This document shows positions 15,959 to 19,875 of a stretch of DNA of 64,000 nucleotides, one piece after another (position 1 is the first letter of the stretch; every line of letters starts with the position of its first letter). Position numbers and translations under genes: made by a program. This DNA comes from an uncultured bacterium. Lineage in GTDB: Bacteria > Patescibacteriota > JABMPQ01 > CAVVCK01. A model generated the notes under the pieces. The model had not been told where the DNA came from, did not search any database, and saw nothing but the letters and a program-made list of their open reading frames with translations. Location: positions 339,050-403,049 of the forward strand of contig CAVVCK010000001.1 in the NCBI GenBank assembly GCA_963746775.1. Reading direction: 5' to 3'.

Positions 15959-15988
15959 AAGTAGGGAACAAAAATTTTTGTTCCTTAC
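15959..15988. repeat. GTAGG-headed palindrome (GTAGGGAACAAAAATTTTTGTTCCTTAC) upstream of gap
   Basis: 14-bp arms with one mismatch. Confidence 0.5.
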
Positions 15989-16132
15989 TAATACATAAAC
16001 AAGGTTTTATAAAAAGTGTAATTTGGGGGAAGCAGCCATCAATTTTTAATAAGCTACGATTATTAGGAAGGTTTGGTTAGTTTTCATACCATTCATTGCC
16101 GCTATTCCGGAAAACAGTAGCCCAACCAATAG

Positions 16133-17210
16133 TTACCGTTTAGAATCTGGTTGGTATTTAGAAATAATTTCAGGCATATTGGCCTGTTTTTTAATTGTTA
16201 ATTCAAGGGGATATTTACCATTTAGATATTTGAATTTCTGACTACAATCAGTATATTTTTTTGTTCTTCTACGGATTAAATAAGCATTAAGAAATCTTTC
16301 AGCATTCTTAAATGATTTGAATCCTTTAATACTTGTTAGTCTAGCGTTTAAATGTGAATTGAATAGTTCTATTAGATTAGTATCTCTAGGACAGTGGGGT
16401 ATATTTTGGTAAGTGAATAGGTTTTCTTCTTTCTTGTAGATATCTATTAGAACACTTTGTCTTAATAAATTCTTTCTCGCATACTTGGTAAATATATTAT
16501 GTAAAGATTTGTTTAATTCTTCTTTAGTTTTTTTCTCCTCTACTTTACTTTTAAAAATATATTCATTAAGCTTGTGAAAAAATAGTAGGTGTTGTTCTTC
16601 CGTCCTTATTCTTGTTTTTTGTCTTATGTTTTCTAGATAATGATTGTGGCAAAGCTGTATTTTGGCTTTAGGATAATAGTACAAAAGCCCTGGTTTTAGG
16701 GCAGGCAGTATATCGTCACAGATAACTACTTGTAGTGGATAGTTACAAGTCTTTAATAATCTAAAGTATCTTCTAAAGGCTTCTTCATTCTCTGAAGGAG
16801 AAAGTATTCCTACAGGAAGATCATGCTTTAGATAATCAATACCGTAAATGAACGGTATTTTTTTATGGTAGCCTTTTACTTTTATGAACTTACCATCAAC
16901 TACAATAACACCTGAGAAGCGATTGCAATAGCTCATTGTTAGCCAAGTGTTATTAGATAAGCTATTCATTTCTTCTTCTACCTGAAGAAAAACTTTAGCA
17001 GGAGATATATTATTCTCATCAGCTAGTTTTCTAAAAGATATTCCATCAACATGTTAAATCCATAACTTTTTCTTTTTACTCCGATGATCAATTGAAAATG
17101 AGCTTTTACATATTTTACAATAATATCTTTTCCTACCATCTCTGCTACCCCATTTAATAGTTCTTTTACTTTTACACTTAGGACACTTTAATTTACGTTT
17201 TTTTTGTCAT
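16133..17210 (-). pseudogene. IS1-family transposase (InsA-like Zn-finger N-terminus plus InsB-like DDE domain), disrupted
   Basis: The 278-aa ORF carries TNLIELFNSHLNARLTSIKGFKSFKNAERFLNAYL (compare IS1 InsB [27 protein letters not shown]...YL). Upstream in the same frame, the reading is continuous across a TAA at 17054-17056. A Zn-finger segment (KLKCPKCKSKRTIKWGSRDGRKRYYCKICKSSF) lies further 5' and is only in frame with the ATG at 17208-17210 if the A8 run at 17198-17205 is read as A7. Confidence 0.65.
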
Positions 17211-17297
17211 GTTTTGCTTAATTAACTAGTTAAATCAGTATATTTTAACTAAATTAAGCTTTAAAATCAAGATTTACCAACCGAAATCTAAACGGTA
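16134..17297 (-). mobile_element. IS1-family insertion sequence (~1.16 kb) with 23-bp imperfect terminal inverted repeats and a 10-bp target-site duplication
   Basis: Left IR is TACCGTTTAGAATCTGGTTGGTA (16134-16156) and right IR is TACCAACCGAAATCTAAACGGTA (17275-17297), matching at 20 of 23 positions. Flanking direct repeats CCAACCAATA lie at 16122-16131 and 17299-17308. The internal transposase has the IS1 InsB-type signature. Confidence 0.8.
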
Positions 17298-17550
17298 TCC
17301 AACCAATACGAAACTGAGCATTCCCCGCTCTAGCCGGACCTTGATGATCGGTCTCTGTCCTCTGACAGTAGACACGGCCTCCATGACTTTCCGGACAATG
17401 TTGTAATTCACTATCCCCAGAAGTTTCAGCCACCATCACAGGCTCTGCATCTCCTTCTCTTCCAATCTTTAGCCCAAGCCTAACACCGTCTCCTATCGAA
17501 AAACCGGTATCAACCACATGATCTCCTTTTCCCATCTTCACGTCACTCAT
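17254..17550 (-). CDS. Small GC-rich hypothetical protein whose last ~21 codons were replaced by the IS insertion
   Basis: Joining the flanks at the target-site duplication reconstructs an uninterrupted C-terminus ...AQFRIGWATVFRNSGNEWYEN*. The current ORF instead reads into the IS right end (...RIGWIPFRFRLVNLDFKA*). Local GC is ~50% against ~30% background. Confidence 0.4.
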   Translation of the reverse strand: MSDVKMGKGDHVVDTGFSIGDGVRLGLKIGREGDAEPVMVAETSGDSELQHCPESHGGRVYCQRTETDHQGPARAGNAQFRIGWIPFRFRLVNLDFKA

Positions 17551-17671
17551 CCTTCCCTTCCTTTCGTTATCCCCCTCAAAAAAATGTGCAAGTTTATATA
17601 ATAATTATATTTTAGACCTAGTCAAATAAAAAAGACTCCGATAAGGTCTTTTTTATAAAATTCAAAGATAC

Positions 17672-19389: not shown

Positions 19390-19787
19390 AAATAACGCAC
19401 ATTGGAAGGGAGGTGGCCGTGTTTTATTACGCGGTCCGGTTCGATTGACGAAGGGCCCTTGCGCCCAACACAAACGTCAAAGAGAAGAACCCGAAAACCA
19501 CAACCGGCTCTCGGCCATCGAGCGACGAACAGCCAGAGCCATAACTGTCCCTTTGGGACAAGGAAGGAAGGTAAAGCACCACCTGTTCTGACATACTCTG
19601 TCTGATCTGCCTGGTGAGCAGAGATGAAAGACAGAGAGAGCTCGTGCATCTGCGCGAGCTACCATCTCCTCCAAAAAAGGAGGTGGATCAGGCACGGTCA
19701 ATGGTGCTGGAGTTTTCTCTCGCAAGAGAGAAATACCCCGAAAAAAAGGGAGGTCACTGAGCTATTGCAGTTCAAACCTCCAGTCTC
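19390..19787 (+). ncRNA. Unclassified structured RNA in a GC-rich island (predicted mature RNA from roughly 19343 to the hammerhead cleavage site at 19787)
   Basis: ~52% GC against ~30% background. Multiple perfect helices are visible: AGCTCGTGC/GCGCGAGCT at 19640-19661, CTCTGTCT/AGACAGAG at 19606-19636, GGCTCT/AGAGCC, GTCCC/GGGAC, and GGAGGT...ACCTCC. Overlapping ORFs on both strands are short and mutually exclusive. The RNase P P4 motif (GGCTTA) and tmRNA termini were not found. Confidence 0.45.
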
Positions 19788-19844
19788 TCCCGCTAAAAGC
19801 GGGACTGATGAGTCCTGATTATACAATTTATAAGGACGAAAGAC
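19783..19844 (+). ncRNA. Candidate type III hammerhead ribozyme at the 3' end of the GC-rich RNA
   Basis: All core positions are present. Stem I is TCCCGC-TAAAA-GCGGGA (19788-19804), followed by CUGAUGA (19805-19811). Stem II is GTCCT...AGGAC (19812-19837) with the G10.1-C11.1 pair. GAAA is at 19838-19841. Stem III is GTC(19783-19785)/GAC(19842-19844) plus the A15.1-U16.1 pair. The cleavage triplet is CUC, with the cut between 19787 and 19788. Stem III is only 4 bp. Confidence 0.45.
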
Positions 19845-19847
19845 CAT

Positions 19848-19875
19848 AAAAAAGAATTTGGTAAAATCCAGGTTC
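19848..19875. terminator. Bidirectional terminator hairpin (AAAAAAGAA...TTCTTTTTT) between the ncRNA and ogt
   Basis: 9-bp A/T-rich stem with T-runs on both strands between convergent transcription units. Confidence 0.4.

Follow-up and report, generated by a model that had tools for sequence, protein, structure and literature searches.

A probable slippery start in the transposase gene of an IS256-type insertion sequence clade of Patescibacteria, with a private nonsense codon in one copy

Background

How can a transposase be made from a gene whose only ATG is out of frame and whose coding frame is closed by a stop codon? The question is raised by an insertion sequence (IS) on the minus strand of a 64,000-nucleotide stretch of DNA (the window) from an uncultured bacterium (assembly GCA_963746775.1, contig CAVVCK010000001.1, positions 339,050 to 403,049). 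The first-pass annotation of the window had recorded an insertion sequence whose ends are intact and which is flanked by a target duplication, located in the 3' end of a real small gene, an ATG displaced from the transposase frame across a run of eight A, and an in-frame TAA further on. All of these observations were confirmed, the displaced ATG on the minus strand. The copy had been read as either decayed or in need of slippage. The comparison with relatives described below indicates that both apply at once, the TAA being decay and the A8 run a slippage device. Taken as a whole, the account of an IS256-type element with a slippery start and a private TAA is considered probable. The parts of the element that carry the argument are listed here.

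16132-17299, minus strand: whole insertion sequence, 1168 bp, guanine plus cytosine (GC) content 29.3%, its ends set by the family-conserved termini GATACCGTT... and ...AACGGTAAC
17193-17210, minus strand: ATG (17208-17210) and the five-codon dead-end frame that it opens, ATG ACA AAA AAA ACG TAA (MTKKT and stop)
17198-17205, minus strand: A8 run, the candidate slippery site; losing one A or gaining two in the messenger RNA (mRNA) would join the ATG to the transposase frame and give MTKKRKLKCPKC...
17057-17197, minus strand: zinc ribbon (CPKC...CKIC) followed by the beginning of the helix-turn-helix, in a frame offset by +1 from that of the ATG, with NF050000 and NF048018 matches
17054-17056, minus strand: private nonsense codon TAA, codon 52 of the reconstructed protein
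16133-17053, minus strand: remaining transposase frame with helix-turn-helix and Mutator-type DDE domain; the annotated 278-aa open reading frame (ORF) at 16133-16969 begins at an internal Met and holds the motif TNLIELFN

Conservation of the out-of-frame A run

The A run was compared across relatives of the element. Loci were sampled from species-representative genomes (69) and from metagenomes (80), with 145 usable, and three positions were located at each locus: the first zinc-ribbon Cys codon, the A run that precedes it and the closest start codon. The comparison revealed that in 122 of the 145 loci the ATG is put out of frame by an A6-A8 run at codons 3-5. Most of these out-of-frame loci are otherwise intact, 115 of the 122 having at least 320 open codons or running off the contig, for an ORF of about 345 codons. 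An in-frame ATG was found at 16 loci, where the run never exceeds A7 and is often interrupted (ACC AAA AAA, AAA AGA). Clustering at 80% protein identity gave 78 lineages with the ATG out of frame in 64, and all of the out-of-frame lineages carry A6-A8 runs. The lineages are distributed over the frame states as follows.

Offset +1: 51 lineages, 42 of them with exactly A8 as ATG NNA AAA AAA A
Offset -1: 13 lineages, mostly A7
In frame: 7 lineages
Start unassigned: 7 lineages

Deletion of an A from the run in the +1 class, or insertion of one in the -1 class, restores the N-terminus M-x-K-K-[RH]-N-P-x-C-P of the in-frame homologues, and the N-terminus reconstructed for the present copy likewise matches their pattern M-x-K-K-x-N-P-x-C-P. 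A stretch of 30 nt, ATGACAAAAAAAACGTAAATTAAAGTGTCC, is invariant in the window copy, L001-L005 and L006/L007 (8 sequences), and the codons around it vary. The frame set by the ATG is five codons long here, the class medians being 12 and 25 codons, and its product is not conserved. No conserved stop or rare codon was found 3' of the run among the relatives. A non-canonical start in the zinc-finger frame, or termination followed by reinitiation, was rejected because in most lineages a TGA or TAA directly at the ATG closes the frame upstream of the run, and because relatives do not share the leader stop.

The best match to the element in the scan of species-representative genomes was 62% identical. 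The genome loci are almost all from Patescibacteria, the host groups being Saccharibacteria, Magasanikbacteria, Doudnabacteria, Kerfeldbacteria, Uhrbacteria, Yanofskybacteria, Woesebacteria and Levybacteria, and further Peribacteria/Peregrinibacteria, Gracilibacteria and WWE3. Several third-party co-assembly metagenome-assembled genomes (MAGs) that contain the element are labelled Gammaproteobacteria or Pseudomonadales (L009, L011, L022, L023, L026, L028, L035, L053, L061, L064, L066, L069, L076), and one relative of the iPGM gene described below is also labelled Pseudomonadales; these taxonomic labels are probably wrong.

Selection and spread of out-of-frame elements

The ratio of non-synonymous to synonymous substitution rates (dN/dS) was calculated for the region downstream of the run. 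In pairs where both members have an out-of-frame run, the zinc-ribbon and helix-turn-helix segment gave a dN/dS of 0.06-0.18 at a dS of 0.6-1.9, the same as the DDE part. For the zinc-ribbon segment of the present copy against its sister copies the values were 0.17-0.32. Out-of-frame elements occur in many different flanks in short-read assemblies, with at least 7 sites for the L109-L121 type, and one Saccharibacteria MAG has an out-of-frame element at three sites. The multi-copy genomes L044-L052 were excluded as evidence of activity, as they are probably long-read assemblies in which homopolymer lengths are unreliable, and the short-read cases were used. These sequence comparisons indicate that the start-less N-terminal part is translated and that out-of-frame copies move. 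A protein consisting of the DDE domain alone, started at the internal Met, was considered as the real product and discarded, as it leaves the purifying selection on the zinc finger unexplained.

Random decay of the A8 frame break, one of the two options in the first-pass annotation, does not agree with an out-of-frame run conserved in 122 of 145 loci. The run is very probably a conserved functional feature, because the out-of-frame state is kept, the start-less part is under purifying selection, the copies have spread and both directions of shift are found. The contrary proposal, that both lesions are plain decay and that the element and its out-of-frame relatives are dead pseudogenes sharing a homopolymer indel, must account for 115 of 122 out-of-frame loci without any other lesion, for the low dN/dS of the start-less region over a dS of up to about 1.9, for a frame offset kept across lineages only 50-60% identical, and for out-of-frame copies at many sites. 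It can point to the genuine inactivating nonsense codon of this copy, to homopolymers as mutation hot spots, and to the few relatives with scattered stops and frameshifts, but it is judged very improbable.

Homopolymer tracts near the 5' end of a gene are a classic phase-variable architecture. The run might accordingly act as a contingency switch at the DNA level, in which replication slippage toggles it ON and OFF, OFF hosts dominate, and rare ON alleles supply the transposase, possibly in trans; phase variation through homopolymers has been discussed (PMC3711429). In-frame A7/A6 relatives of out-of-frame lineages do exist, and transitions of state were seen in 4 of the 25 multi-member clusters at 80% identity. 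Among the 17 multi-member clusters at 95% identity, however, the state varies in a single one, and there between two in-frame forms. Copies made by an ON element should themselves be ON, whereas the many recent insertions all have the run out of frame and at the same length. The OFF state of the main class is nearly always A8 and never A6, where symmetric toggling around A7 predicts otherwise, and no protein at least 80% identical to this copy and starting in frame at the ATG was found in a collection of 15 billion proteins. A switch of this kind is regarded as improbable.

Proposed mechanism and level of the shift

The following mechanism is proposed. A conserved promoter would drive the gene, in which the ATG is followed after 5 nt usually by eight A's, and the zinc-finger/DDE frame lies one nucleotide out of phase with the ATG. 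Standard decoding would give only a short, non-conserved peptide (MTKKT in this copy). Full-length transposase would come only from the minority of messages or translations shifted by one nucleotide within the run. The shift itself would be RNA-polymerase slippage (programmed transcriptional realignment) from A8 to A7 or from A8 to A10, and the outcome a built-in attenuator that keeps the transposase low and involves no upstream regulatory protein. That a start-proximal attenuator acting by RNA-level recoding is a family-wide trait of these IS256-type elements is thought likely; for RNA-polymerase slippage as the specific mechanism the confidence is lower, somewhat better than even.

Antonov et al. 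(2013) described an unconserved shift direction together with homopolymers of at least 8 nt as the signature of transcriptional realignment (PMC3711429), and IS1447 slips at about 16% in each direction on an A9 run, seven A's being sufficient (PMC6211511). RNA-polymerase slippage is favoured here because orthologues differ in the direction of the shift and carry runs some 8 nt long. The homopolymer is located at the frame junction, its direction is not conserved (51 lineages +1, 13 lineages -1) and the start-less frame evolves as coding sequence; an upstream ORF for a separate DNA-binding regulator, otherwise a feature of realignment, is absent. From sequence, the shift would take place at the RNA level during transcription and with low efficiency. 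A stimulatory hairpin next to the run was considered and rejected, as the one conserved palindrome stops 17 nt upstream of the run, a distance too great for it to act like a terminator.

Some points weigh against this reading. The level of the shift, RNA or translation, is read from the comparison of sequences, and consensus assemblies hide minority A7 alleles, so that switching at the DNA level keeps a small probability. A run of eight A is at the lower edge of what drives slippage of the E. coli RNA polymerase. The ordinary genes of the host contain 12 sense-strand A8/A9 runs in 50 kb, therefore slippage on A8 is either not very efficient or tolerated by these genes. As for the family, the clade is a distant relative or subgroup of IS256 and not a typical member, with model scores of about 50 against 150 bits. 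The sense-strand A runs in the same 50 kb numbered 231 for A5, 115 for A6, 48 for A7, 9 for A8 and 3 for A9, that is, a five-fold fall from A7 to A8 against an approximately two-fold fall per step for shorter runs. This drop hints at selection against runs of 8 or more in the host and fits a real but low-efficiency slippage, as an attenuator needs.

The tolerance of A8 runs in host genes is easier to accommodate if the shift is a context-dependent event close to initiation, which leads to the possibility that the same conserved attenuator is operated by the ribosome. The shift would then be mostly a +1 frameshift of Lys-tRNA on A_AAA_AAA_A, 3-4 codons after initiation, and in the minority class a -1 shift on A_AAA_AAA or A_AAA_AAG. 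On A runs Lys-tRNA can slip either way, and the known -1 motifs include A_AAA_AAG and A_AAA_AAA (PMC3711429, PMC4066793); some runs of the minority class end in G and so form A_AAA_AAG-like strings. The unconserved direction, 51 lineages at +1 and 13 at -1, is counted against ribosomal frameshifting by Antonov et al. (PMC3711429). Downstream of the run there is no conserved stop, rare codon or structure, the heptamer of the -1 class is usually not in phase for tandem slippage, and a 2016 review, which describes the use of frameshifting in IS1, IS3, IS5 and IS630, states that +1 ribosomal frameshifting has not been identified in any insertion sequence (PMC5009743). A ribosomal shift is thus considered unlikely, and a +1 slip of Lys-tRNA on A_AAA_AAA_A at this position, unaided by a stimulating stop or structure, slightly more so. 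If it were true, this Patescibacteria-wide clade would provide the first known insertion sequences that rely on +1 ribosomal frameshifting, and ribosomes of the candidate phyla radiation (CPR) would show an unusual frame maintenance early in elongation.

The private nonsense codon and the state of this copy

The second lesion, the TAA at codon 52, showed a different distribution from that of the A8 run. The codon is CAA in L001-L005 (95% identical) and AAG in L006/L007 (84% identical), and in distant homologues it is mostly a Pro codon, with some Glu or Gln. The TAA is absent from all 156 related loci except for the same locus re-assembled (L157). Since it is private to this locus and the closest relatives have CAA or AAG, it is with high confidence a C-to-T nonsense mutation (CAA to TAA), that is, decay. 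Other decayed relatives have different, scattered lesions, such as a W-to-stop change in L103. The suggestion that the TAA might be a recoding signal is not borne out, the codon being unique to this locus. The first-pass annotation had also remarked that other copies with the same TAA and A8 would point to functional recoding; the A8 is indeed shared family-wide, the TAA is not.

As the TAA lies at codon 52, this copy makes no transposase even after slippage. It is probably non-autonomous: freshly inactivated, and at best mobilisable in trans. An alternative genetic code in which TAA or TGA is a sense codon was rejected, as long ORFs under translation table 11 fill the window and TAA ends both the transposase gene and the small gene.

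Family assignment

The family of the element was examined with protein-family models, a homologue alignment and a profile search of solved structures. In Pfam, the transposase matched Transposase_mut (PF00872) with 24.7 bits against a gathering score of 21, along with a weak MULE match, and DDE_Tnp_IS1 gave no match at E<=1. The model NF048019 ("IS256 family transposase, variant Zn-binding type") aligned with residues 11-312 over positions 2-300 of 304 (E 1.6e-13), and NF033543 ("IS256 family transposase") gave E 7e-12; the scores of 50.6 and 44.9 bits, respectively, are below the 150-bit equivalog cut-offs. The IS1 model NF033558 covered residues 9-74 only, that is, the zinc ribbon and helix-turn-helix, at 30.8 bits against a cut-off of 100. 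The zinc domain at the N-terminus did exceed the cut-off of NF050000, the model of the IS1/IS1595 N-terminal zinc-binding domain (39.2 bits against 28), and that of NF048018 (37.8 bits against 27). The InsA-like C4 zinc-finger segment noticed from the sequence is thus upheld, with NF050000 above its cut-off and the zinc-ribbon Cys residues conserved in the alignment of homologues.

The homologues gave the same picture. All 17 aligned homologues match the IS256 model, 16 of the 17 match PF00872 (best E 1.7e-10), and an IS1-type DDE domain occurs in none of the 17 family members. The in-frame homologues are single ORFs of about 352 aa. In the search of the homologue profile against the PDB the only meaningful solved relative was 6xg8, a Mutator-family transposase (E 5e-4). 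The residues D105, D165/D166, C187, H190 and E281, with spacings of 60 and 116 residues, are invariant in the 17 sequences and are candidates for the D...D...E triad and the C-x-x-H block of IS256 transposases. In IS256-family elements the terminal inverted repeats measure about 20-40 bp and the target duplication 8-9 bp (ISfinder feature list). The 25-bp repeats and 9-bp duplication of the present element fall within these sizes, and as they fit IS1 equally they do not discriminate.

The element is with high confidence of the IS256/Mutator type with an IS1-like N-terminal zinc ribbon, and not a member of the IS1 family to which the first-pass annotation had assigned it; the catalytic part belongs to PF00872, DDE_Tnp_IS1 is not matched and the IS1 model is confined to residues 9-74. 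The motif TNLIELFN, present in the 278-aa ORF as had been stated, is not an InsB signature as claimed but one of IS256/Mutator, because the Pfam, NCBIfam and PDB matches place the catalytic part there. By analogy with IS256 and the IS256-family element ISCth4, transposition may proceed by copy-out/paste-in. An IS1-family element whose TAA is bypassed by some unusual recoding, as first supposed, is hardly credible. The zinc ribbon and helix-turn-helix do match IS1/IS1595-type models, and the size, inverted-repeat length and 9-bp duplication suit IS1 as well; yet none of the 17 family members has an IS1-type DDE domain, none of the 156 related loci save the re-assembled one has the TAA, TAA is the ordinary stop of the transposase gene and of the small gene, and long ORFs cover the window densely under the standard bacterial code.

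Ends and leader of the element

The ends of the element and the region upstream of the ATG contain the following features.

17300-17308: target-site duplication adjoining the left (transposase 5') end, CAACCAATA on the plus strand, located by repeat finder
16123-16131: target-site duplication adjoining the right end, located by repeat finder; the empty homologous site in L158/L159 reads AAGTGGTTGG
17275-17299, minus strand: left terminal inverted repeat, GATACCGTTTAGATTTCGGTTGGTA, 21/25 identical to the right end
16132-16156, plus strand: right terminal inverted repeat, GTTACCGTTTAGAATCTGGTTGGTA, including the transposase stop codon at 16133-16135
17242-17270, minus strand: promoter-like site of the transposase gene, TTGATT-17-TAAAAT, from a consensus scan and a position kept in relatives
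17222-17233, minus strand: perfect palindrome in the predicted 5' leader, TTAACTAGTTAA, a candidate operator or transposase-binding site

The repeat finder gave a direct repeat CCAACCAATA at 16122-16131 and 17299-17308 and a 23-nt inverted repeat, identical at 20 of 23 positions, with arms at 16134-16156 and 17275-17297. The inverted repeat had been described in exactly this form and stands; after refinement it extends to 25 bp with 21 of 25 matching. The direct repeat had been given as 10 bp, and 10 nt do match on both sides, of which the target-site duplication proper accounts for 9 bp (CAACCAATA), the tenth matching base being by coincidence the terminal G of the element. The termini of the relatives read GA[TG]ACCGTT... 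and ...AACGGTAAC, and a distance of 89 nt separates the left one from the ATG downstream. The element is delimited as 16132-17299 (1168 bp) because these termini are shared across the family, and the duplication is taken as 9 bp because of the family termini and the 9-bp target duplication likewise found at the sister copy L002/L003. A 21-nt terminal pattern occurred at just two sites in the 64-kb window, the two ends of the element, with 0 expected by chance, and the same scan found no further copy of the element in the window.

The promoter-like site TTGATT-17-TAAAAT alone is not above chance in AT-rich DNA, and the same -35/-10 layout is present at the same position in relatives 50-60% identical. 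Just downstream of this conserved promoter, about 10 nt upstream of the ATG, the palindrome TTAACTAGTTAA is kept family-wide (L001-L156). Its arms co-vary across relatives 40-60% identical, as in TTGAC..GTCAA and TTAACCGGTTAA. From its sequence, the palindrome might serve the DNA-binding domain of the transposase itself as an operator, or else fold into a 5'-terminal hairpin. The stretch from the palindrome to the ATG consists of about 10 variable nucleotides without a clear ribosome-binding site.

Target gene and insertion site

The gene interrupted by the element lies between iPGM and GAPDH genes, and its parts are as follows.

17300-17550, minus strand: 5' part (84 codons) of the small gene, which encodes a lineage-restricted 98-aa protein
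16077-16122, minus strand: displaced 3' end of the small gene, encoding ATVFRNSGNEWYEN and stop
17598-17625, minus strand: promoter-like site upstream of the small gene, TTGACT-16-TATTAT, its TTGACT block kept in L158/L159

Rejoining of the flanks gave a 98-codon ORF ending in ...RIGWATVFRNSGNEWYEN and stop. The insertion cuts the last 14 codons off the small gene, and residues encoded by the element take their place. Among 1.84 billion representatives the small protein has one other cluster only, P0122, at 62% identity. Contigs L158/L159 encode P0122 and keep the gene order of the window (iPGM - small gene - GAPDH) with the site uninterrupted, so that they provide the empty site in a related genome that had been proposed as a check. 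The homologue there ends in ...GWTAIFRQGRGEWYDN and stop, in accordance with the earlier statement that joining the flanks restores the C-terminus of the small protein.

Differences between the small gene and its counterpart in L158 number 26, 16 and 52 by codon position, the dN/dS is about 0.15 and the single indel is of 3 nt. The gene is protein-coding, since the substitutions are three-periodic and the indel is 3 nt long, and the comparison with its syntenic relative indicates purifying selection. On the same grounds, the possibility that the target is a structured RNA gene (RNase P, tmRNA or signal recognition particle RNA) was rejected. No Rfam family was found in the target at gathering or at permissive thresholds, in the window and in the intact homologous loci, and ARAGORN found no tmRNA. 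The restored target sequence folds modestly better than shuffled sequences (z = -2.1).

The small gene had been called GC-rich and compositionally foreign. Its GC content is indeed 47.8% against 32.0% for the window, but this does not point to a foreign origin: the values by codon position are 0.61, 0.47 and 0.36, so the excess is in positions 1 and 2, and the third-position value of 0.36 is near the host background. What stands between iPGM and GAPDH varies among close relatives; the 98-aa orphan gene is confined to the window genome and L158/L159, and L160 and L161, whose iPGM is 84-88% identical, have unrelated genes of 179 aa and 181 aa in the same slot. The small gene is thus an accessory gene in a variable slot, and its composition does not make it foreign.

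The insertion is real and recent. The locus was also assembled independently in Logan (L157, run ERR11571143), and this version agrees with the window in junction, A8 run and TAA. It differs in the zinc-finger region (L157:2560-2600 against about 17165-17180 of the window), where AAAAGAACT is replaced by AAAGAATT (a 1-nt deletion and a substitution), and the contig ends about 430 nt into the element. The differences suggest that further, slightly different copies of the element are present in that sample. The closest named iPGM relatives of the host are 86% and 70% identical, and the host is a Patescibacteria genome, probably of the Parcubacteria group.

Two further observations were made in the neighbourhood. 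Between the small gene and GAPDH, at 15960-15989, lies a 30-nt near-perfect palindrome, AGTAGGGAACAAAAATTTTTGTTCCCTACT, which is kept in L158/L159. It gave only a weak, chance-level match in Rfam and is probably a bidirectional terminator. On the plus strand at 19395-19860, between an MGMT-like ORF and iPGM, there is a non-coding block of about 450 nt with about 50% GC, whose predicted fold has an energy of -181 kcal/mol (z = -7.15 against shuffled sequence). It ends in a hammerhead-like core, CTGATGAG...CGAAA (19805-19841), a motif unique in the window; Rfam Hammerhead_3 scored 24 bits on the block (E 0.013), which falls short of the gathering score. The syntenic relative L158 lacks the block, and no match to it was found in phage records or viral contigs. 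It is possibly a structured or mobile RNA of an unrecognised type.

Comparison with known systems

The element was compared with known insertion sequences. With the IS256 family (NF048019; ISCth4, 6xg8) it shares the Mutator-type DDE domain, in which Q-x-C-x-x-H...N and TN-x-IE-x-x-N are candidate signature blocks, as well as the 9-bp duplication, inverted repeats close to 25 bp long and a layout in which a single transposase gene takes up the element. It differs from that family in its score of about 50 against 150 bits, in its shorter length (1168 bp), in a clade nearly confined to Patescibacteria, and in that most members of the clade need a one-nucleotide shift at codons 3-5. The likeness to IS1 (insA/insB, with a -1 shift at A6C) consists of an N-terminal C4 zinc ribbon and helix-turn-helix, small size, a 9-bp duplication and an A run that limits the transposase. 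Unlike IS1, the element has a different catalytic domain, a single ORF and no InsA-like product, the upstream frame being 5-25 non-conserved codons, and its shift is mostly +1 instead of -1 and lies at the gene start, not between domains.

The closest parallels in mechanism are insertion sequences with transcriptional realignment, such as the IS630 element of Roseiflexus, IS1447 of the IS3 family and the IS5/IS630 clusters of GeneTack. These likewise have an A run of about 8 nt at the junction, both directions of shift, and an active product from slipped messages only. They fuse two ORFs, a DNA-binding regulator and a catalytic domain, whereas here the whole protein lies downstream of the shift, and no stimulatory hairpin adjoins the run of the present element, the palindrome ending 17 nt upstream. 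The shift is less than 15 nt from the ATG, a position that frameshift scanners such as GeneTack skip, as scans of this type miss shifts less than 50 nt from the start (PMC3711429). The slippery start may have been overlooked because such scans ignore the first 50 nt.

In the Mutator superfamily, a -1 frameshift in mid-gene has been predicted for the ISMich2 group of prokaryotic Mutator-like transposases alone (Guerillot et al. 2014, PMC3942029). The two systems are alike in superfamily and in a conserved frameshift taken as programmed regulation; the ISMich2 group differs in having two ORFs joined by the mid-gene shift, in belonging to an ISKra4-related lineage and in lacking a start-proximal A run. 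A full-text search of open-access papers found no report of a slippery start for IS256-type elements. Recoding at A runs is an established means of restricting transposase synthesis. What is new here is the occurrence in an IS256-type family, the proposed throttle at codons 3-5 without a regulatory protein, and the Patescibacteria-wide range.

Conclusion

As a single locus the element is ordinary: in the window genome a recent insertion truncates a lineage-specific small protein, and the inserted copy has itself just been inactivated. The slippery start across the family is a moderately interesting and testable variant of a known mechanism. The known frameshifts of IS1, IS3, IS5 and IS630 choose between a regulator and a regulator-transposase fusion, whereas the present one would be a pure throttle, because a shift at codons 3-5 yields no upstream regulatory protein. 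Gene callers label such elements as 274-278-aa "transposases" without a DNA-binding domain, or as pseudogenes, and once the slippery start is recognised, a mobile element that is among the commonest in Patescibacteria genomes can be annotated correctly. The CPR bacteria are uncultivated and have no genetics, so that the element may serve as a natural reporter for the fidelity of their RNA polymerase and ribosome on A runs; any metatranscriptome containing such elements could be checked for A7 or A10 messages.

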